A stretch of DNA of 63,688 nucleotides, filler included, from Reclinomonas americana ATCC 50394 (Eukaryota): NCBI GenBank assembly GCA_048213135.1. It is 14 parts of 14 records of this genome, joined end to end, with 100 filler letters (N's around TTAATTAATTAA, not from the genome) between each part and the next. Parts side by side here need not be neighbours in the genome. Positions count along the whole stretch, not along the records: positions 39,361 to 48,043 come from AFZH01020936.1; 13 more parts are not named here. One strand, given 5' to 3'. Under the pieces are notes generated by a model, which was not told the DNA's origin, did not search any database, and saw only the letters and a list, made by a program, of their open reading frames with translations. Below, piece after piece: positions 7,201 to 61,382 of this stretch. The position numbers were made by a program, and so were the translations under genes. The first letter of the stretch is position 1; the number at the start of each line of letters is the position of its first letter.

Positions 7201-9029
7201 GATGACGCTGTAGCAAGTCGCCACCCTCCTCTTCGGTAGGTGCGGCGGCTGCTGATGCTGCATAGGCTGCGGCTGCGCCGTTCTCATGCGCCGCTGCGCC
7301 TGCGACACCTGCGCTGTCGGGGTTGTCCACGGCACCTTTCCGCTTCGTCGCATTCGTGACGGCGCCAACCAGTGCCGAAGTATCAAACATGCTCGTTAGA
7401 GCACCCTGATAGGTGGCGGCTGCCGCACGAAGTGGTCTAGCGGGCGGCTTGGCGGCAGCTCCATTTGCACCACCACCGCCACCTCCTGCTGCACTGTTGG
7501 CAGCAGACGGCCCACCCACACCCCCGGCACGGCCCGCACCCAGTGGCTCCGGCGTCGGCACACGCGCAAACGAGCTGTCGTCAGACTCTGTGTCGGGTGG
7601 CGTCGGTGGCGTCAGGAGATCAGGTGAGAGGGCAGCGGCCGAGTGGCCGTTGTGCGCCGATCGCGGCGCTCCATTGACACTGATGCCGGGCGGCATCAGG
7701 CGTTGTGAGTCCGTCAGCATGTGCAACTCGGTGGACATGCGCGAAAAGATCATTTTTGCATGCACGAGCTCGTAGTCCTGTTGTTGGTCAACGAAAGTAT
7801 GTGAGAGAGATGCGCGCGCGCGCACACACACACACACGGAGAGCGTGTGAGGTGAGTCGCACCGTCGACGCAGAACGCATGTGGGACAACCAGTGCGCCA
7901 TGTCGGCCAATCGTGCGCCAAACGCCGGTCCCAGGGTGAGTACACGTTGACCGAAGCGATCGGTGACACGCAGCTCGAGCTGCTTCTTATCACCACCCAT
8001 CGACGCCTGCTCCACCTTGCAGCCGTGCATGTGAATCAGTAGCTCCATTCCCGACTGTGACGAAGGGCGATTATTTAGTGAACACAACGCGCGTACATGC
8101 AAACTCGTGAACCCAAACGCAGCACCTCTACGTTGCGGTACACGCGGAATTCGGGGCCGCTAAGCACGCAGAACTTGGTCGAGTGTGCAGCTATGGTGCA
8201 CGAGCACACAGTCATGTGAGACGGACACACACACGGGGGAGAGCGAGAGAGAGAGAGAGAGGGTCGTTTCGACGCACTCTTGTCCATGAGGAAACCACAC
8301 TTGGAGATGGCGTACACCGGTCCATGACGATCGGCCTGCGACGGGGAGGGAATGGTGAGCCGGGGGGAGAGGCACGGCGAAAACAGCTGCAGACGCAACA
8401 TGCTCCTCGGCGACCTTCTTTCGAGCTTCGCGATCGTCGTCGCTCTCCACGCCCTGCACGATGCGAGAGAGGCGCAAGAGTGAGCACGGCGGCGATGACA
8501 CGAGCGGAGAGAGAGGGAGAGAAACAGCTGCGCACTCTTTGGTTGCTGCGAACGTGTGTGATCCACGATCGAATATTGTTGTCGTTCACCGAATCGCCGT
8601 CGTACAACACCCAGGCACCGTCGGGACCCTTGGCCAACATTGCAAACGCTCTCACCGTAGTCGGCATGATCGCCGACCCACGTAATCTAATCTGACCCAC
8701 CGCGGGCAGCTGCGATGTGTTGTGTGAGCGTGAGAGAAATGAGAGAGCCAGTCACACAACAAAAGACAGAACCTCAGGTGACGTGTGAAACCACAACATA
8801 TCATGAGCCAATACAATCCACACACGCTCGCCAGGCGTCATGGGCGTCGGCGTCGGTTCATCCTCATCGAATCCTGCACACACACAAACAGTCAATTTCT
8901 CTTCACTGTCACACACGCCACACACACACGCACACGCACGCAACTATGTACAAAGAGGTAGCCGGTCTTATCCGCATGCGCGTGAATGTGTGCTGGGTGT
9001 GGCGCGCCACCGAAACTCGGTGTCTTCAT
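4177..9029 (-). CDS. large protein with probable tandem N-terminal PH-like domains and a long Ser/Pro/Ala/Gln low-complexity tail; start uncertain, 3' partial
   Basis: Exons give DKTGYLFVH..RVWIVLAHDMLWFHTSPE..VGQIRLRGSAI..IRSWITHVRS and KCGFLMDK..KFCVLSGPEFRVYRN..LIHMHGCKV..DMAHWLSHMR, a PH-like strand and terminal-Trp helix pattern. Long ORFs follow at 6881-7996, 5211-6245 and 4129-5406. Confidence 0.55.
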
Positions 9030-9672
9030 TCCACTCTGTGTGTGAGAGAGTGTGAGTGTGAACGAAAATGAACCAAAAATCACAAACTCCGTCTGCGCGC
9101 GCCCAAACAAACACACACACACTCGCACACATGTACACACGCGCGACATATACAGCGGGGGCGTAGGTGGTGCGTGTGTGCGTGTGTGGGAAATGGCGTG
9201 ACAGTTCAACGACAAAGACGCGCACACAGACGGACCGAGAAGACAAGCGAGGCGCCATCGCCCTCCTCCTCATCACAATGACACTTGATCGAAATCAACG
9301 GTGGGTTATCGTCGTTTGGCGACGCCCGCACTGCTGATGCTCTCATCGCGAAACGGAAAAAACAGGCGGAAAAAGCGTGCCTCAATCACGCAAGAGAGTG
9401 AGAGTGAAAAGAAGCAGCAGAAGAGTGTGTGTCAATGCCAAAACAAGATTGAGAATTGCAGAAGCGTGCCACAACACCCCCACTCTCTCTCTCTCTCTCC
9501 CTCACACACGCTCCCTCACATGTCTCTCTGTGAAAACACGAACCATGCGCAAAGAGGCGCGACCTTCGCCATCGCCGCGCGACATCGTGGACAATAGACA
9601 GTGGACAGTGCTCTTGCCGCAATTGCATTCGTTTGTCCATGGCAAACACATTTCACACACGCAACGCAAAAA

Positions 9673-14611
<4,939 letters not shown>

Positions 14612-16409: not shown

Positions 16410-17855
16410 TCAGTCATCGCCGTCGCTGGCAGCACCGGAGCTGAGTTTCCTTCGCTTCCGAGGCACCTGCTCATCCCCGTCGTCGTCATCGGCATCACCG
16501 CCACGAGCTCCACGACTCTTCGACCGACCCGTGAACAGCTGTCGCGTGAACGCACAAGAACAATGAGCTACAGCGCGGGACAGCCAATCGATCGTCGCGC
16601 CCACCTTTTCAAGCAACTCGATGCTGGCTGGACCCTTTTGTCGCTTCTTGCTCTTCTTCGCACCGCTCGGGTTGCCGGGGAGCTTGATCTCGGCCGGCAG
16701 CACAATCGCCTCATCCGCACCAGCAGCAGCTGTCGCCTTTTTCGACGACGCCGCAACGCCATCCACGTCACTGACAATCGCCTTGAGCTGCCGGAACACG
16801 CGACGCACACGAGGCTTGCTGGTGACGCCAGTTTTCTCCGCCTGCCAAACCACCCGCGCACGATGAGTCGGCGAGCCAAGAACGCACACACAGGCTCGCG
16901 CATGCACACGCACTCTTCTCGCTTCCATGGCCTCCACGACCTTGGCCTGCGCCACTTGCTGCAGGTAGTCGTCGTGCTCTCGTCTCGCTGCCTCCACTTC
17001 ATGTCGCATCCGCTGGTCCTTGGCCGCCTGGTCTCGCGCTGTGCATGAGAGGGAGAGAGCGAGAGTGAGAACGGAGACAACTCGCCAGTCGCATGCTGAC
17101 GTCGGCCACTCACCCATGCTCTCCGTCAGGTGCTTCCACGTGAACTTGCGCAGGTACTTGAGGACCCACATGTCGTTGGCCCAGTGGCCGCGCTTCTCTG
17201 CTCACCGCAAACGCCGTCAGCAATGCACGGAGAGATGTCGCGAGAAGCACACCGTGAAACAGCGCACCGATGGGAGTGCCATTCAGAGTGCGCGCCACGG
17301 CCTTGGCCACTCGCTTGTCTGTGAACTCTACCCAACCCTCCTTGTACATGATCTGCGAACAAGCAGAGTGAGCAGGCACACACACGCACGCTCGTCGTCG
17401 TCGTGACATCACACTGCACCTTGCGATTACCACCGCGTTTTAACCGCTTCTCTCGTTCCCGCTGCGTCTCCGGTTCCAGGTACACTCGGTCGACGGTGCC
17501 AAACTCCTCCATTAGCCGCCTCACCTGCAGCAACAAGAAGGCGGTGAGGGCGCAGAGAGTGCTGATTCACATCACCACCGCCATGTACATCGCACACACA
17601 CGCGCGCGCGCCCACAGGAAACGGCGATTGCACGCGTGTGTGTGTGTGGAGAGAGAGAGCAGAGGCTGCTACACAGACACATGCACACGCTTGCAAGGCA
17701 GCCACAGTACCTTTGCTGGCGGAAAGAATGGTGGCAAGTGACCCTGTTTCCCGTGCACAAGCGCAGAGAGACAGAGATGAGGCGACTTGGAGAACACACT
17801 AGGTACATGAGCGCGAAGGGAACGCAACAACATAGACGATTCCGGGCTCGACCAT
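16410..17855 (-). CDS. ESF2: pre-rRNA processing protein ESF2/ABT1
   Basis: MVEPGIVYV|GHLPP..FGTVDRVYLEPE..YKEGWVEFTDKRVAKAVARTLNGTPIG..DMWVLKYLRKFTWKHLTE. Confidence 0.93.
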
Positions 17856-17922: not shown

Positions 17923-18480
17923 ATGTTGCGCTCAGTGCTGGCGCACTTTGCGCTTCTGCTCATCATCGCAGTCGTCGCTGTGCATGCGAGCAACATCGAC
18001 ATGCCCTCCGATGTGCGTCTGAGAGAGTGTATAACACGCACTTCTCACACACACTCACTTACTCACTCTCTGAACTTACACAGACGTGCTACTTGGTGGA
18101 GGATTGTGGCGGCTGTGTGTCGCACTCCAACTGTGGCTGGTGTGTGTTTGGTCACTCGGATAACACCGCCATGTGCAGTTCCGTGCTCTTGTGTGTGTGT
18201 GATTGATTGCTCACACTCCTTCACTACTCACGCTCACACGCGTGCGCGCACACACACAGTGTCGGGCACAGTTGCTGGCCCCGCAAAAGGTGCGTCTGTG
18301 TGTGTGCTCACATGTGCATGCATGCATGTGTGATTGATTGCATTGCTGGCAGGCCTCTATCGATGCCCGGCCAAGGCCTGGAGCTACGGCTCGTGCAATG
18401 GTGGCGGATCCTCCACTGTGCGTGCCCTCCTCCTCTTCTCTCTCCTCTCCTCTCTGTCTCTCTGTCTCTCATGGTGTGTG
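17923..18480 (+). CDS. secreted or membrane protein with a PSI-like Cys-rich domain, 3' partial
   Basis: Signal peptide MLRSVLAHFALLLIIAVVAVHA, then CxxxxxCGGCVSHSNCGWC...CPAKAWSYGSC. Confidence 0.6.
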
Positions 18481-27000: not shown

Positions 27001-29014
27001 ATCGACCTCGACTCACCACTCAATGCCGTGTCGCTCGACGAGACGACTCTTCTCGGCACCGCAGTGGATCGGCAAGTTGGAAGCGACTCACTGCAGGAGA
27101 TCCTTCGCCACGTCATACACGAAGTGGTGGCTGAAGATGCATACGGTATGCCGTCAGTGCCTTCCAAATTACCCGCTGTCGACCATTGACGAACGAATGT
27201 GTATGAATAACGCAGCACCACGTGCAATCGTGTCGACCCCTCTGGAGGCATCACCAGAGTGGCACTGCCCCGATCCACTGCAAACGATTCGCTTGTATCG
27301 GTATGTTGGTGATTCTCGAACTCCAGCATGCTAGCCGTTCATCGCGATTTACTGCTGTCTCCATCAGTGGCCTCCCCTACGACGGTGGTCACGGCGACAC
27401 TGAACGGCGCTCAGTGAATGCATTTCACTGTACGCTTCCACAACGCTTGGTGTCGGCTGGCGAGTTCAAGGTACGTGCGAGCGACTGAAAAATTGCTAGC
27501 TTGCAAAGTCATCACTGATATTCCGCACAGTGCTTGGTCCGCGTCACTCGACTATCAAGTCGACGGCCGTCTCCAGTTGATGCGCACTTGTCTGTGACTC
27601 CACTGACTGAGCGCTGGGTTCCTCGACTATATCAGGCGCGAATTCGCGTATTCCGTCTTGTCAACATTCGACCGCCATCCAACAGTTCGCCACTCGAATT
27701 GCGGCCGTACGTGCGCGTCATTGCCGGCGACGGAAGCACACCAGGTTCGTGTGCCTGTCTCTCTTGTCACCACTTGCTCCTCTCTCTCTCACATGCGACA
27801 TGCAGGCTCCACGGTGTATCTGCGTGAGCAGTCAGTGATGCCGGCCGAGACCACCAGTGAACACTCACCGCTGCTGACGGCCACTGTCTGTGTGCCGATC
27901 ATCTTGCCCGGCGAGCAGCTGCGTGTGGAGGTGGCCAGCAATTCGGACTTGCCGTACTCGGCTTTTGACGACCTGATTGGTGGCACAATCATCGAGCTGG
28001 AAGATCGCTTGCGCATGTTGCGTAGAGAGACTCTGACCTCTGTAATATTGCTTCTACTGACACACGAAACACGGCCACAGTGATAAATGGTGCGATGAAC
28101 TGCGAAAACCAGTCGAAGTGAGGCCACTGATCAACAAAACATCAAGAGAAGCCCAAGGAGCAATTGTGCTGGCCGTGGATGTGCTTCCACAAGCTGCGGC
28201 ACTGGCGGAATGGCCGACAACAGCCATCACTCCAGTCATGAGTGAGCTCTTCCACATTCGTCTCACCATCTGGTCGGTGCTCGATACGCCACTCGGACGG
28301 CAAGCGGTGCGTTGTGCACACTCCTCTACGCGGATGTGGCAGACCCGCTCACTGACTTGCCAACAACTGCATGCAGAGGTTGAGTGATGTATTTGTGCAA
28401 GGCAGTGCCATGTGGAACGGCGAGCAACACAGCACAGATGTGCACTTCGGCAGCGACGGCAACAGTGAATTCAACTACCGCCTTTGCTTCGAGTGCAAGT
28501 GGCCGAATGATGCCATTCGCGCGCGCCTCCGCGTCCAAGCGTGGGAACGTCAGTCGTGGTTGCGCTCGGCACTGCTTGGAGAGTGTGTGTTGGATCTCTA
28601 TCCCCTGTTGGAGAAGGTACTCCACACACACACACCCAATGCCACAAGCTGCACAAACTAACTCACTCGTGTGCGTGCAGATGGTCACCGACAGGCAACA
28701 GAAGAAAGAGCTGGATCACATCCGGCTACCACTACGACTTCCACGGCTGTCGCGCTCACAAGGCGTGGCAGTTGTTAGCCTGCAAATAGTGTCCGCTCGC
28801 GAACACCGAGAGCAACCAGGTGCGCGCAGACAGACTCCCGTCCATGTGCGCGTGGTGCGTGCACACAAGTAATACTCACTTCAACTGTGTGTGTGTGTGC
28901 GCAGTGGAAGACGGGCGCGACTCGGTCCCAACTCTGCAGGCACCGGACCGTGGAACAGCTCTCTGGTCGACCGCCAAGCGACTGCTGTCGTGCTGTGTTC
29001 GCCACCGTGCGTAA
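24026..29014 (+). CDS. divergent ferlin-like multi-C2-domain protein 2, 5' partial
   Basis: HWVSLYGYP, TPDIFIHV, YDFRLHVYQARGL..SNAFVEISF, LYPSWFETL, DDLIGGTIIELEDR, QGAIVLAVDV, HIRLTIWS, QHSTDVHFGSDGNSEFNYR. Confidence 0.8.
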
Positions 29015-41698: not shown

Positions 41699-42551
41699 TT
41701 ACAAGGTGGTATCGGAGAGCACGTGCTCCTCATACTCCTCACTCTCCTCACTGTACACGTCAAAGTTCCTGGTGACGACGCTGAAATCGACCTTGACCAC
41801 GCCACCTGATTGCACGCGCGTTACTTCGCGCCCTTCGCTCTTGCTCGGAAGCGTCGGATCGATAAAGTGCGGCGAGGAGCCGCTTAATGAGGACAACAGA
41901 CCCTGCAGCGCCGACGACGCCACCGGCTTGAACAGACGAATGTATCGCGTGTACCTGCAAAAAAAGAACGTGCGGCAATCAGCACTCCTTCCGCTCGCCC
42001 CTTTCTCCCCGCTAGTCGTGAAAGGAACCTTCCTGGACCGCATGGTACGTGGACAGCACCGTAGCCTTGCACAGTCTCCTTGCCCTTGCCTCCAATCGAG
42101 TACGTGGTTACACACAGCTGCGGCCACCCGTGCGGATTGGTGGAGCGAAACGAGATCTCAAACGGGAAGTTCCACACAAAGAGAGGTATGGCGCCGTTGC
42201 CGCCAAGCTCGCTGACTTGCGTGCACGACTCGCGAGGCACCACACGCTGCGCACATTGATGATGATGAGGAGCAGTTCGTTGTTGCAGGGGGGGTGTTTT
42301 TTTTTTGCTTGCGTCGCACCTCGCCATCACCGCGCTCAATCTCCCAGTTGGGTCCGTGCACAAACTGTAGTCGGCAGTACAACGAGCCGACGCCATCCAT
42401 CTGCGCAACAAGGGTGAGAGAGAGCAAAGGGGAGGGAGGAGGAGAGACAACAACATCAGCATACCTGCGCGCTCTCCACTTGGCCGTTGACGGTGACAAA
42501 GAAGGCGCTGGAGGAGGCCGAGGAGAGCGAGGAGGGGCCTGACTTCAGCAT
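41699..42551 (-). CDS. B9D1: ciliary transition-zone B9 domain protein 1 (MKSR1)
   Basis: FFVTVNGQVESAQ..LYCRLQFVHG..VWNFPFEISFRSTNPHGWPQL..GYGAVHVP..EGREVTRVQSGG, B9D1-type motifs. Confidence 0.93.
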
Positions 42552-42614
42552 TGTGTGGGAGCGAGAGGATGGACGTGGACAGAGCTCGCTTCGTTGCAAT
42601 CAATCACCGCCCAA

Positions 42615-46063: not shown

Positions 46064-47099
46064 ATGCCGCCTGCTCAGCAGAAGAAGTCGGTGCGTTGAT
46101 GGTGGCGTAGTAGAGTGTGGTGCTGTGCGATGCTGTGTGGGAGTCGTCAGCGTGTGAGGAAGAGGGGGAGAAGAAGGGGGCGTGCATGTCGATGGCGCAT
46201 GTGCACTTGCATGCCTCGCCACTCGGCCGTTCTTCAGCTATGCGTCTGTGTGCGTGTGTGTGTCTGCGTGTGTGTGATAATGCGCTTGTGTGTTTCGTTG
46301 TGTGTTCTGTGACTGCTTGTGCTCGGAGAAGGACGAGACCGCAAGTGGTTCTTCGCTGTTCTCTCTTGTGCCGTTCTCTCTCTCTCTCCCTGTGTGTGTA
46401 TGCGCTCCCCACGCACAGGCGCGCACAGCGTGATGTCGTAAAAGCCACAGTGGAGAGAGAGCCATGAAAAGAGAGAGGGACTCCACCATGGCCGACATGG
46501 TCACGCTCCTTTTCTCTCTCTCCTCTCCTTGTCAGCACCACCTCCCTTCTCGCACGCATGTGTATATGCGCATATTCCATTGTATCACCACGGGCATCTC
46601 TACTCACACTGGTTTGTCATTTCTTTTTCGACGAGCGCAGAAGAAGGCTCTTGAGGGCGTGAACGCCCGCCTCAACCTGGTCATGAAGTCCGGCAAGTAC
46701 GTGCTCGGCGTCAAGGAGACCATCCGCAACATGCGCAACGGCAAGGCCAAGATGGTGATTGTGTCGGAGAACACACCACCTCTGCGCCGCTCCCAGATCG
46801 AGTACCTGGCGTACCTGGCACACGTCACTGTGTTGCACTATGCTGGCAGTTGCGCACACACTCTCCATCTTCTGTGTGTGCACCACTCCCTCCTGTGCTA
46901 TGTGCTCATCCACCCCGCAAACGCACAGACAACATTGACTTGGGAACTGCATGCGGCAAGTACTTCCGCGTGGGCGTGCTCGCCATCACCGATGCTGGTG
47001 CGTCGTCTCTTCCCTTGTGCATGTGAGTAGCAAGCAGCGCATCGTTGGCTCACTGTGTTTTCGCACACCACAGGTGACTCTGACATCCTCACGATGTAA
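46064..47099 (+). CDS. RPL30: 60S ribosomal protein eL30, 4 exons
   Basis: [75 protein letters not shown]. Introns 46091-46640, 46849-46928 and 46998-47073. Confidence 0.97.
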
Positions 47100-47545
47100 A
47101 TCGTCCTCCGCCCATTGTCGTCTTGCCGGCTGCATGTTTTCGGAGGGTCTCGGCTTGTCGGCTTCTGCTTCCTGTACTCTTTCCTCCTCCTCCTCCTCCT
47201 CCTCTTCAGTATCGGTCCAATCGTGCGATTGGCTGTCTCCCTTCCCGGGAGAACAGCTGGAAGGATGGGGATGGTGGTGGCGAGAGAATAGGGAGAAAAT
47301 GGTGGCTGAGAAGAAGTGGCTTTCTGCGAATGTGTGGCTGGCGGGCGGTTGTGAGTGTGTGCAAGTGTGTAGAGTCGACGAGTGGATGTGGTAGTGGTGG
47401 CGGTGGTGCGAGGAGTGAATGGGTTATCTGTGGTGCCAAGTCCATGTTGACACGCAGACAGAGAGAGTTGTAGTAGTAGACCCACGAGTCGATCCGAGTG
47501 GTGATCGTCGATGAAGTTGATCGGTGTTTCGCCCCTGCGCCCCTC

Positions 47546-47798
47546 ATAAGCCAAGGTGCGTGCATTTGCATGACTCACGCCACGCCGCAATTCTCCGATC
47601 TGAGGTGATGCACAACTGTGTGTGTGTTTGTCTCCGCCGCAGATCAAAGAGTAAGGAAACAGACTCTCGTGGATTGACCTCCCGAGTTTCCCTTGCGGGA
47701 AATAGTACCCAATTTTTGCGGGGGAGCGAAAGGCGGGCCTCGCTGGAAGCCCTTTGCCTTACACTCAGGCAGGGTGCCGCCTGGCTAGCCTCTCCCCC
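47546..47798 (+). ncRNA. U12-like (minor spliceosomal) snRNA, apparently containing a GT-AG intron at 47556-47642
   Basis: In U12 order: GAGTAAGGAAA branch-recognition motif (47649-47659), SLIIa CTCG-TGGA-TTGACC-TCC-CGAG, SLIIb TTTCCC-TTGC-GGGAAA, Sm site AATTTTTG (47711-47718), and a long 3' stem-loop (GGGGGAG/CTCCCCC, AGGCGG/CCGCCT, TGCCT-TACACTC-AGGCA). The 5' end is inferred. Confidence 0.75.
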
Positions 47799-48143
47799 TC
47801 GACCCAAGTGGATGATGAAAGCGAAGAAATAATGTGAGGGGAGTGCGTGAGGGGTGAGGTGGGGAAGAGCGCGTGTCGGCGGCCGCATCTCGCTTGCCTG
47901 TGCATCACCATGCGATGACGTGATTGCATTGGGCGATGGTGTAACGGTCATTGCAAAGCGCGCGCTCAACTTTGGCGTGCCATCTCTTTCTCCCGTGAGA
48001 ACGACACGTGCACATGCGCGCATGCACGCTCACCAAGGAGCGTNNNNNNNNNNNNNNNNNNNNNNNNNNNNNNNNNNNNNNNNNNNNTTAATTAATTAAN
48101 NNNNNNNNNNNNNNNNNNNNNNNNNNNNNNNNNNNNNNNNNNN

Positions 48144-48932
48144 CACAGCTACTACCACGGCCTGATCGACCACAACCTGTACGAGTTCCTCACCCAGAAG
48201 CAGTGGCCGCGCTGCAAGCGAGCCATTGCCGCCGGTGAACCCAAGGAGGAGAACCAGGCCTGCAACGGCATCATTGGCCGCATCAAGCGCTCGCACGGCT
48301 CACTCAACGTCTACGACGTCACCAAGCAGTGCCCGCCCAACAATTCGCTGTGCTACGACTTTACGGTACGATGGACAGCTCTGCCGTGATCTTGCGTTTC
48401 GCTCTCTCTCACCACCCCTCGTTTTTTTTCACAGCCGGTCTCACGCTACCTGTCCATTCCGGCCGTGCGCGAGGCGCTGCACGTGGACGACAACGCGCCG
48501 CGCTGGAAGCCCTGCAACCTGCGCGTCCACCGTCAGTTCTACAAGGACTGGTGGTCATCACAGGTGAAGGAGGTCACCCAGATTCTGCGCGAGCTGCCGG
48601 TCCTGTTCTACAACGGTGCCGACGACTTCATCTGCAACTTTGCCGGCACCGACAGCTGGCTGCGATCGATGGAGTGGGAGTACCAGGAGGACTTTAGGCG
48701 AGCGCGTCGCAATCCGTGGAAGGTCGACGGTGAGACCAAGGGTTTCATGAAGCGTGCCGACAACCTGCGCTTCTTGGTCGTCTTCAACGCGGGCCACATG
48801 GTCCCGATGGAGTTGCGTTCGTATTCGATATCCACTTCACCGCGCGATTTGCTCACGTTGGTGATTGCATACAGCCAACCTGTGGTTGCCCTGGAGATGT
48901 TCCGCAGCTTCATCTACGGCGACATGCAATAA
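48144..48932 (+). CDS. serine carboxypeptidase (S10), C-terminal part
   Basis: NVYDV, VREALHV, WKPCN, VLFYNGADDFICNFAG (catalytic Asp), VFNAGHMVPM|DQP (catalytic His). Confidence 0.93.
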
Positions 48933-59500: not shown

Positions 59501-61382
59501 GCTCAACCTCAACTTTAACAGTCTGTTGCCGTTTGTCACTGCGGTGGACATGGGTGAGTTCGGGTCGTACATTCTCCTGCGTCGTCTGCATCTCTCCTCA
59601 TTGGTCGATGTTTGCAGGCCCCATGTCGGTGCAGTCGTCCATGTCAGTTCTGCCGCCGCCCACAGATGAGGACGGTGGCAGCGGCAGCGGCAGCGGAAGT
59701 GGCAGTGGTTTGTGCTCGTCGTTTCGTGAGAGAGAATGTCAAGTGTGCTCATCATTCTTCGTCATCCTCGCAGCTGTCGTGCAGTACTCTACGGCGCAGC
59801 TGTGGTCGTACGCTGTGCGTTACCTGATCGTGGACAAGGTCAAGACCGAGTTTGTCAGCAAGGTGCTGCGAGAGACGGCTGTGGACGAGCGACCAGTAAT
59901 TCGTGTCAATCGACCGCGCGCTCTGCGACACATGAGAAGTCACGTTGCCTCGCGGTCATTGTTTGTGTGTGTTTCTCGACGTTGTTGCTGACGTGCATGG
60001 TGTTGATGCATAACAGATCCGGCCAACGACCCCGACGGTCGCAACTCGCTTTTCGCGCAATGCATGGAGCAGCTGCTCTCCAAGGGACTGAAGCGCATGG
60101 AGAAATCGTTCAAGGTCGAGTTCCAGGGCGAAGGTGCCGAAGATGCAGGCGGTCCCTACCGCGAATGCTTGGCCCTGATCTCCGACGAGCTCATGTCCGA
60201 TGCCGTGCCACTATTCTGTCAGGCGCCAAATGGTATCTTGCGTGCTGCCACTGGTCGTGGATTAAGTGACTGACATATTTGATGGCAGGTACCGATAATG
60301 TCGGACAGCATCGCGAGACCATGGTCGTGCGTCCTTCAGCGTGCACCGAGTATCACCTGCGCATGTTCCGCTTCCTCGGCAAACTCATGGGTCTGGCAAT
60401 GCGAACAAACGACTGCCTCAGCCTGCGCATCAATCCTGTTGTTTGGAAGCAGCTGGTGCGTGTCTCCTAGTTTTTGTCGCCGTCTGTGTTTCTTGATACT
60501 GAGTGTCATTGTGTTGCACATGTCACAGGTCGGCGAGGCGCTTACTCGTGCCGACTTGGCACTGTGTGACTTCCGTGCGGCGCAAAACTTGGATCGTCTC
60601 TCGCAAGCGTCGCCACTGGTCGGCTCCACGGACCTCACCTTTGCCGTGGCGCTGTCTGACGGTTCGACTCGCGAGTTGCGCGACGGAGGCTCGGAGATTC
60701 GCGTGACGTTGCGTTTTTCTGTCATGGCTTTGCTGCGATGTGGTTGGTGTGTGTGTTGGTATCTCACATGTGCGACAGTGCCGAGAATTGCATGGAATGG
60801 GCCCTGTTGTACGAGCGTGCACGGCTCTCCGAGTCGAGCAGGCAAGTGGCTGCCATTCGCGACGGTCTGCTGGAGGTCATTCCCTCGTCCGTGCTATCCA
60901 TGTACACGTGGGATGAGCTGGAGGCGAGCATTTGTGGCCGACCAGATTTCGAAGTGGCGGTGCTGAAGGAGCGAGCGTCGTACGAAGGCTACACTGCCGA
61001 ATCCGACCAAATCCAGTGGCTGTTCCAGGCACTCGAGTCGTTCACGCCTCGCGAGCGCTCCATGTTCTTGCGCTTTGTGTCTGGTATGGCACGCCTGCCC
61101 AAGTACGCTTCGCGGAACTTTATGTTCAAGCGTGGCGCACAACGAGGTGAGTTTTTCTGGCACCTCCTGTGTGTCACACGGTCGTGTTGCTCATGTGCTT
61201 TCTGTTTGCTTGCAGATGACTCTTTGCCAACGGCCGCCACATGCTTCTTCTCCATCACGCTACCGAGATACTCAACGCGGGAGATTCTCACCGAAAAAGT
61301 GCGGTACGCCTGCACTCACTGTCTGGCCATTGATACGGACTACACGGCACAGAATGCTGACGTGTTCTCCAACGAAGACTGA
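53522..61382 (+). CDS. giant HECT-domain E3 ubiquitin ligase (HERC/HECTD4-like), 5' partial, spans two linkers
   Basis: C-terminal HECT: FKVEFQGEGAEDAGGPYRE, FRFLGKLMGLAMRT, ELEASICG, FLRFVSG, LPTAATCFFSITLPRYS..CLAIDTD. The upstream contigs are on the same strand; assigning them to the same gene is inference. Confidence 0.85.

Follow-up and report, generated by a model that had tools for sequence, protein, structure and literature searches.

The window considered here, by which we mean the whole stretch of 63,688 nucleotides (nt) analysed from Reclinomonas americana ATCC 50394 (GCA_048213135.1; 14 parts of the genome joined end to end by filler), contains on its plus strand, at approximately 47636-47800, what is probably a genuine but divergent gene for the U12 small nuclear RNA (snRNA). 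To judge from the sequence of the locus, helix Ia of its 5' arm would have drifted, and neither a U2/U12 chimera nor a hybrid spliceosome is needed to account for it. That a U12-type gene of some kind lies here, with its body at approximately 47643-47800 and with relic and variant copies counted in, can be held with high confidence. A preliminary description of the same locus had gone further, presenting the RNA as a chimera in which a spliced, U2-type arm is joined to a U12-type body, and suggesting from this a hybrid or remodelled minor spliceosome.

In cmscan with permissive filters, the Rfam model of U12 (RF00007) aligns over its full length (model positions 1-151) to 47634-47787 at 25.6 bits, with an E-value of 0.0065 for the 801 nt searched. 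U12 is the sole spliceosomal snRNA family among 18 weak Rfam matches in the window and was retained by cmscan as the top match within its Rfam clan; across the window, all Rfam families stay below their gathering scores. The U12 score is unconvincing on its own, and what convinces is the composite signature GAGTAAGGAAA-N35-65-AATTTTTG, which occurs once in the window and is matched in none of 100 dinucleotide shuffles. The open reading frames that overlap the locus have no match to any Pfam family. The elements of the RNA, all on the plus strand, are the following:

47636-47641 (+): GCCGCA, that is, the helix Ib triplet GCC and the bulge; alternative start of a contiguous arm, in the unspliced reading.
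47642-47646 (+): helix Ia segment GAUCA, identical to the helix Ia strand of U2; the split reading takes its G from 47555.
47647-47650 (+): 4-nt linker AAGA, the counterpart of human U12 nt 14-17 (AUGA).
47651-47657 (+): branch-site recognition box GUAAGGA, within GAGUAAGGAAA (47649-47659); identical to the Rfam consensus and to U12 nt 18-24.
47666-47686 (+): stem-loop IIa (SLIIa) of the minimum-free-energy fold, which aligns to the Rfam SLIIa.
47687-47702 (+): stem-loop IIb (SLIIb), UUUCCC/GGGAAA with loop UUGC, a perfect stem of 6 base pairs (bp), from the fold and the Rfam alignment.
47711-47718 (+): Sm-binding site AAUUUUUG, single-stranded in the fold; supported by the Rfam alignment, the fold and the composite signature.
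47720-47798 (+): long 3' stem-loop III (SLIII) with apical loop UACACUC (47760-66), from the fold.

With an RNA start at 47634, the GUAAGGA box occupies nt 18-24; in the spliced reading it occupies nt 17-23. The body (47660-47800) folds alone into SLIIa, SLIIb, a free Sm region and a long SLIII (z = -2.2; 6 of 200 shuffles fold as well), and the Sm site stands between SLIIb and SLIII, as the U12 architecture requires. Because the closing helix of SLIII (GGGGGAG/CUCCCCC, 7 bp) runs 11 nt past the end of the Rfam alignment at 47787, we place the probable 3' end of the RNA at approximately 47798-47800. The earlier view that the RNA outside the arm is U12-like is thus upheld by the full-length alignment, the single composite signature and the folding of all the expected elements. 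By analogy with other members of the family, the GUAAGGA box would base-pair with U12-type introns at their branch site, the Sm ring would assemble on the Sm site, SLIII would bear the site of a particle-specific protein, and the 5' arm (GCC, bulge, GAUCA) would make helices Ib and Ia with a catalytic RNA of the U6atac type.

Identity as U2 (RF00004) was considered and rejected: the box is GUAAGGA and not GUAGUA, the U2-type 5' domain, a region of about 20 nt with stem I and helix II upstream of GCU, is missing, and there is a single 3' stem-loop. The triplet at the locus is GCC, as in U12, and not GCU, as in U2, and a reading of the local sequence brought to light no upstream complement to AGCCAAGA with which a U2-type stem I could be made. 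The 36 nt that precede the candidate splice donor (47520-47555) start with AUCG, like U2, and about 10 of the first 14 letters are those of the 5' end of human U2; this segment was also tried as a U2-like 5' extension and set aside, as no U2-type stem I can be drawn with it, and the likeness is treated as chance.

The unusual part of the RNA is its 5' arm. On the plus strand, the DNA reads ...CTCATAAGCCAAG, followed by GTGCGTGCATTTGCATGACTCAC...TCTCCGCCGCAG (47556-47642, 87 nt) and then, from 47643, by ATCAAAGAGTAAGGAAACAG...; GCCAAG stands at 47550-47555, GTGCGT begins at 47556, CAG occupies 47640-47642 and ATCAAAGAGTAAGGAAAC begins at 47643. The letters and coordinates of the preliminary description are correct, as is its count: once 47556-47642 is deleted, the arm becomes GCCAAGAUCAA, which agrees at 10 of 11 positions with the human U2 arm GCUAAGAUCAA (human U2 as printed in PMC2396436 supplement 3) and at 5 of 11 with the human U12 arm GCCUUAAACUU. 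The contiguous DNA, however, supplies a U12 arm of its own, since CCGCCGCAGAUCAAAGAGUAAGG is aligned by cmscan to U12 model positions 1-23 free of gaps. It reads GCC-GCA-GAUCA-AAGA-GUAAGGA, with segment lengths of 3-3-5-4-7, the same as in canonical U12. Segment by segment (human positions and the definition of the linker following the accessible text of PMC3201867), the comparison is:

Helix Ib triplet: human U12 GCC (3-5); contiguous reading GCC (47636-38).
Bulge: human U12 UUA (6-8); contiguous reading GCA.
Helix Ia: human U12 AACUU (9-13); contiguous reading GAUCA.
Linker: human U12 AUGA (14-17); contiguous reading AAGA.
Branch-site box: human U12 GUAAGGA (18-24); contiguous reading GUAAGGA.

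The U2-like 7-mer AGAUCAA is contiguous in the DNA at 47641-47647, so that the U2-likeness of helix Ia is independent of any intron and the same in both readings. Compared with the common U12 sequence AAACUAA, it carries three substitutions (A9G, C11U and U12C in U12 numbering). The spliced arm GCC-AA-GAUCA is one base shorter than canonical U12 and copies the 2-nt AA bulge of U2. With a gap-free arm available in the contiguous DNA, the statement that the arm is spliced is not confirmed, and its characterization as chimeric is not supported, for the plan of U12 (GCC, bulge, 5-nt helix Ia, 4-nt linker, GUAAGGA) is kept with three substitutions only.

The arm was compared with 53 U12 sequences aligned in the literature (PMC2396436 supplement 3, part 45), among which the arm nUGCCUUAAACUnAUGAGUAAGGAAAA is nearly universal. 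G at aligned position 9 is absent from all 53, as is GAUC at positions 9-12, and an arm with GAUCA, the helix Ia strand of U2, is on this comparison really unusual among U12 RNAs, as had been proposed. Measured against the conserved U12 arm nUGCCUUAAACU, which takes part in stem I and in helix I with U6atac, the locus keeps GCC and the spacing and differs at 3 positions of helix Ia. The earlier observation that stem I (CCUUA/UAAGG) cannot form is also correct; GCCGCA is present in the U12 of Spizellomyces punctatus (1 of the 53), and loss of stem I therefore has a precedent. Linker variants AAAGAG and UAGAG/UUAGAG are present in the U12 of Schmidtea and Trichinella.

What such an arm would pair with can be judged from published alignments, in which helix Ib is formed by U12 (U)GCC with U6atac (A/G)GCA and helix Ia by U12 AAC(U) with U6atac (A)GUU. 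The helix Ia strand of U6atac differs by lineage (AGGUU in human, ACUUU in Mucorales, UAGUU in Spizellomyces, AAGUU in Drosophila and UGUUU in Daphnia; sequences from PMC2396436 supplement 3, part 48), and in these alignments the U12 arms vary together with it. Human U6 (...GAGAAGAUUAGCA) and human U6atac (...GAGAAGGUUAGCA) have helix Ia strands, GAUU and GGUU, that are one base apart. Going by these published sequences, GAUC of the locus could form two Watson-Crick and two G-U pairs with GGUU of U6atac, and three Watson-Crick pairs and one G-U pair with GAUU of U6. Duplex energies calculated with RNAduplex for the locus arms are -4.3 and -4.5 kcal/mol with the human U6atac motif, -4.9 and -4.1 kcal/mol with the human U6 motif, and -7.9 and -9.5 kcal/mol with a U6atac of the Spizellomyces type; the cognate controls give -5.3 (human U12/U6atac), -6.0 (U2/U6) and -8.9 kcal/mol (Spizellomyces pair). 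All of the energies (-3.3 to -9.5 kcal/mol) are small and overlapping and do not separate U6 from U6atac, and with the human motifs the locus arms are near or slightly below the range of the cognate controls (-5.3 to -8.9 kcal/mol).

Given this overlap and the possibility of wobble pairing, the arm does not force U6 as the partner. The economical reading would be ordinary co-variation with U6atac, or wobble pairing: an ordinary U12 arm, whose helix Ia may have drifted by the three substitutions A9G, C11U and U12C, and whose partner we infer to be either a co-varied U6atac or an unchanged GGUU strand reached through two G-U wobbles. The precedent for the loss of stem I in Spizellomyces, the possible pairing of GAUC with GGUU and the co-variation of this region among lineages further weaken the case for a chimera.

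Two structures are possible for the gene, which differ in the use that they make of the following segments:

47548-47555 (+): candidate exon 1, AAGCCAAG, which a split gene would use for its 5' end and for the helix Ib GCC (47550-52), with a consensus donor directly after it.
47556-47642 (+): 87-nt interval, which would be a U2-type intron (AAG/GTGCGT...CAG) of a split gene or, in a contiguous one, its promoter and 5' end.

A split gene, in which the excision of a U2-type intron of 87 nt would bring the 8-nt first exon AAGCCAAG next to AUCAAAG, stands at about an even chance, and a contiguous gene, with transcription starting near 47634-47636 to give GCCGCAGAUCAAAG, has a chance just short of even. 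The candidate intron, which at 87 nt is of typical length, has a perfect AAG/GTGCGT donor, the same as that of the intron at 46998 in the ribosomal protein gene RPL30 (listed below), and a CAG acceptor. The four introns nearby measure 63-80 nt, and each of them ends in CAG; their donors are GTGCGT, GTTGCG or GTACGA, and all four have CTCAC or CTCAT approximately 20-27 nt before the acceptor. The word AGGTGCGT occurs eight times on both strands of the window, and AGGTGCGC seven times.

Among the 3018 YAG sites of the window, a strict configuration of GCC-N2-3-GTGCGT with intron-like features is found at two, the candidate locus included, a broad form of the GCC-donor configuration at nine, and a very lenient form at 48; the other sites with this configuration mostly look like real introns. 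If the GCC condition is dropped, 22 of the 3018 sites qualify, compared with 0.10% in shuffles. GCC at -7..-5 of the intron end is present in 2 of 44 putative introns, one of which ends in GCCGCAG. We estimate roughly that the likelihood ratio is approximately 15-140 in favour of an intron and take the prior as 1-5%; the ratio, the low prior and the very short first exon together bring the odds of an intron to about even.

Each structure calls for a coincidence. If the gene is contiguous, GCC-N2-3-donor and intron-like features would lie upstream of the CAG of the arm by chance; if it is split, the end of the intron would mimic a U12 arm by chance. The split structure has against it a first exon of only about 8 nt, a spliced arm 1 nt shorter than the canonical one, and a best branch motif, CTCAC at 47574-78, that lies 65 nt from the acceptor and favours an earlier AG at 47603-04, 27 nt away. 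The CTCAC-branched alternative ending at that AG would be a 49-nt intron with a poor GAG acceptor; another branch-like word, CTGAG at 47600-04, is 39 nt from the acceptor of the candidate intron, and no AG lies between. The contiguous structure has against it positions 1-2, which are CC, a combination found in none of the 53 published U12 sequences, and the upstream consensus donor preceded by GCC, which would be a coincidence of about 0.03-0.3%.

Within the candidate intron, at 47564-47578, we noted ATTTGCAT, the octamer word of vertebrates, and an overlapping TGACTCA; the alternative start at 47636 is 58-72 nt downstream of them, roughly the distance at which a proximal promoter element of an snRNA gene might be expected. 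The words that 47400-47640 has in common with the rest of the window, when promoter words were sought, are only scattered single 11-mers. An intron-like interval of 50 nt at 28855-28904 (+), GTGCGTGCA...ACTCAC...CAACTGTGTGTGTGT...CGCAG, agrees with the candidate U12 intron in how it starts, in the branch word and in a CAACTG(TG)n tract, and the letters in common are mostly splice signals and microsatellite.

Introns in genes for small RNAs are established in other systems, though in snRNA genes they are rare. The accessible text of PMC5832005 reports that the U3 genes of fungi have 138 introns, nearly all of them (133) in the 5' half, and that of PMC5855946 cites introns in the U6 gene of fission yeast and in the U1, U2 and U5 genes of Rhodotorula hasegawae. 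No report of an intron in any U12 gene was found in the literature searched, which lay mostly outside subscription journals.

Several findings weigh against a genuine U12 gene at the locus. The 25.6 bits amount to less than half of the RF00007 gathering score (53), and for the whole window and all families the E-value of the match is 0.52. The SLIII loop UACACUC matches only in part the 65K (RNPC3) site CUACUUU, with UAC..U in common (motif as given in the accessible part of PMC3510501). As regards substrates, the window contains no RTATCCTT site, none of its five TCCTTGAC sites has a donor-like word within 160 nt upstream, and none of its eight RTATCC[TC] sites has a branch-like word within 400 nt downstream; U12-type introns make up <0.5% of the introns in genomes generally, according to the accessible text of PMC3584512, and the lack of one in a single window therefore says little. 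The low score, the changes in both the arm and the SLIII loop and the failure to find a U12-type intron in these 63.7 kb could also be read as decay, the locus then being a U12 pseudogene with a drifted 5' arm in a lineage whose minor spliceosome is lost or being lost; possible relic genes for U12 and U4atac are discussed for Phakopsora in the available part of PMC2396436. We regard such decay as unlikely, given that the branch-site box (11 nt) and the Sm site (8 nt) are both undamaged and correctly spaced, the spacing of the arm segments is kept, and all stems are kept by different sequence, including the perfect 6-bp SLIIb and the 7-bp closing helix of SLIII. The search covered one 63.7-kb window only, and snRNA genes are often multi-copy with variants, which would agree with a canonical U12 gene elsewhere and a minor, specialised or poorly expressed copy at this locus; we give this a low probability. 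A chance resemblance at a locus that is not an snRNA gene could draw on the whole-window E-value and on the GTAAGGA word, which taken alone is at chance level (2 found vs 1.64 expected), but the absence of the composite signature from all shuffles, and a full-length model alignment with matching architecture, make this extremely improbable. In a metagenome scan with CAAAGAGTAAGGAA-N35-65-AATTTTTG, the five loci found were all AT-rich chance matches, none of them U12 by Rfam (E up to 1), and a scan of prokaryote genomes with a 19-mer of the arm gave nine loci in metagenome-assembled genomes, none with an Sm-like site.

The hybrid or remodelled spliceosome put forward in the preliminary description would require that U6atac, and perhaps U4atac, has been lost, that the U12-type RNA pairs with the major U6 through a U2-type arm, and that U12-type branch sites are processed by a mixed machine. 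The identity of its helix Ia with that of U2, not seen in the 53 published U12 sequences, and the AA bulge that appears when the intron is removed would fit such a machine, and mixed machines have been proposed before, in what is accessible of PMC11347168 (U4 with U6atac in Phytophthora) and of PMC3510501 (snRNAs of mixed features in Giardia). We nevertheless consider it improbable: the arm is only three substitutions away from canonical U12, GAUC could still pair with the GGUU of a canonical U6atac, whose strand is one base apart from that of U6, the duplex energies show no preference for U6, and helix Ia co-varies freely in other lineages. The ACAGAGA box of U6, moreover, would not fit a U12-type 5' splice site. 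In its full form, with a U12 gene split between helix Ib and helix Ia by a major-spliceosome intron, a mature GCC-AA-GAUCA pairing with U6, and both U6atac and U4atac lost, the proposal is highly improbable. A drifted, U6atac-directed U12 therefore remains our preferred reading of the locus.

The genes on either side of the U12 locus in the window, with the introns used for comparison above, are the following:

46640-47099 (+): ribosomal protein L30e gene (RPL30), upstream of the U12 locus; Pfam L7Ae/L30e, 5.4e-12; stop codon at 47097-99.
46849-46928 (+): RPL30 intron with a GTTGCGC donor after a non-G exon end; CTCAY approximately 24 nt before CAG.
46998-47073 (+): RPL30 intron with a G/GTGCGT donor; CTCAY approximately 24 nt before CAG.
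48144-48925 (+): 3' part of a serine carboxypeptidase S10 gene; Pfam 2.4e-31; 5' half missing at the contig joint.
~48366-48434 (+): carboxypeptidase intron with a GTACGA donor.
~48812-48874 (+): carboxypeptidase intron with a GTTGCGT donor.

At 48044-48143, two runs of N surround the 12-mer TTAATTAATTAA (48088-48099), with a stop in each of the six frames; contigs appear to have been joined artificially at this point, and the sequence to its right need not be a true neighbour of the U12 locus. Elsewhere in the window, exons of a B9-domain ciliary basal-body protein (41702-42603, minus strand) suggest a flagellated or ciliated organism. Exons of the catalytic subunit of DNA polymerase delta are present at 10224-14453 (+), one of them 63-73% identical to its counterparts in plants, fungi, animals and protists alike, and an exon of a HECT ubiquitin ligase at 60660-61379 (+), with a top database match of 41% identity. 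Weak matches to Rfam mir-3149 on both strands (8924-9191, 17592-17647 and 18236-18319) most likely reflect low-complexity repeats rich in GT/GC rather than genes for microRNAs.

Surveys of the minor spliceosome make use of Rfam cut-offs, 53.0 bits for U12 in one case (accessible text of PMC11347168) and a genome-wide E-value of 0.01 in another (PMC10639083). A U12 gene that scores 25.6 bits, and is perhaps split by an intron, would be missed by threshold-based surveys, and its lineage could be scored as having no U12. If the RNA is expressed, as we presume, the helix Ia strand of U12 would be free to change as far as the sequence of U2, and whether the catalytic core co-varies could be tested directly on the U6atac of the same organism. 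Splicing of the 87-nt interval would make this a U12 gene with a spliceosomal intron, the first split U12 gene, and the minor spliceosome could then not be assembled without the major one.

Among known systems, the locus is closest in plan to the U12 RNAs of RF00007 (human, plant, Acanthamoeba and others; PMC2396436 supplement 3), with which it has in common the GAGUAAGGAAA box, the 4-nt linker, the GCC triplet, SLIIa and SLIIb, the Sm site AAUUUUUG, one long 3' stem-loop and a length of approximately 165 nt. It differs from them in its helix Ia (GAUCA vs AACU(U/A)), in having no stem I, in its SLIII loop (UACACUC vs CUACUUU) and in its score (25.6 bits vs the gathering score of 53), and its gene may contain an intron. 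Spizellomyces punctatus (PMC2396436 supplement 3, parts 45 and 48) likewise has a U12 arm that starts with GCCGCA and for which stem I is impossible; in its U6atac, GGCA pairs with UGCC and AGUU with AACU, so that the arm and its partner co-vary. Spizellomyces keeps AACU in helix Ia, whereas the locus has GAUC.

Physarum polycephalum offers a second case of a protist lineage in which one of the core pairing elements of U12, and with it the sequence of its partner, has changed, to follow the available part of the report (bioRxiv 10.1101/2020.10.12.336362). There, it is the branch-site box, GCAAAGAA, that has changed along with the branch motif of the introns; at our locus the box is canonical and helix Ia has changed. 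The intron-bearing genes for small RNAs have, in the accessible texts of PMC5855946 and PMC5832005, an mRNA-type GT-AG intron in a conserved and functionally central part, as the candidate intron would be here, and in fungal U3 the intron is likewise close to the 5' end (PMC5832005). The candidate first exon at the locus differs from these in measuring only about 8 nt, and its splicing is putative. Finally, the 'major/minor hybrid' snRNAs of Giardia lamblia and the proposal of U4 with U6atac for Phytophthora, as presented in the available portions of PMC3510501 and PMC11347168, resemble the present case in that a single snRNA shows features of the two types of spliceosome and that the possibility of a mixed machine has been raised. 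By the same account, the U2 of Giardia combines a U2-type 5' half, branch box included, with a U12-like 3' stem, whereas the RNA described here has the box and body of U12, and only the 5 nt of its helix Ia are U2-like.

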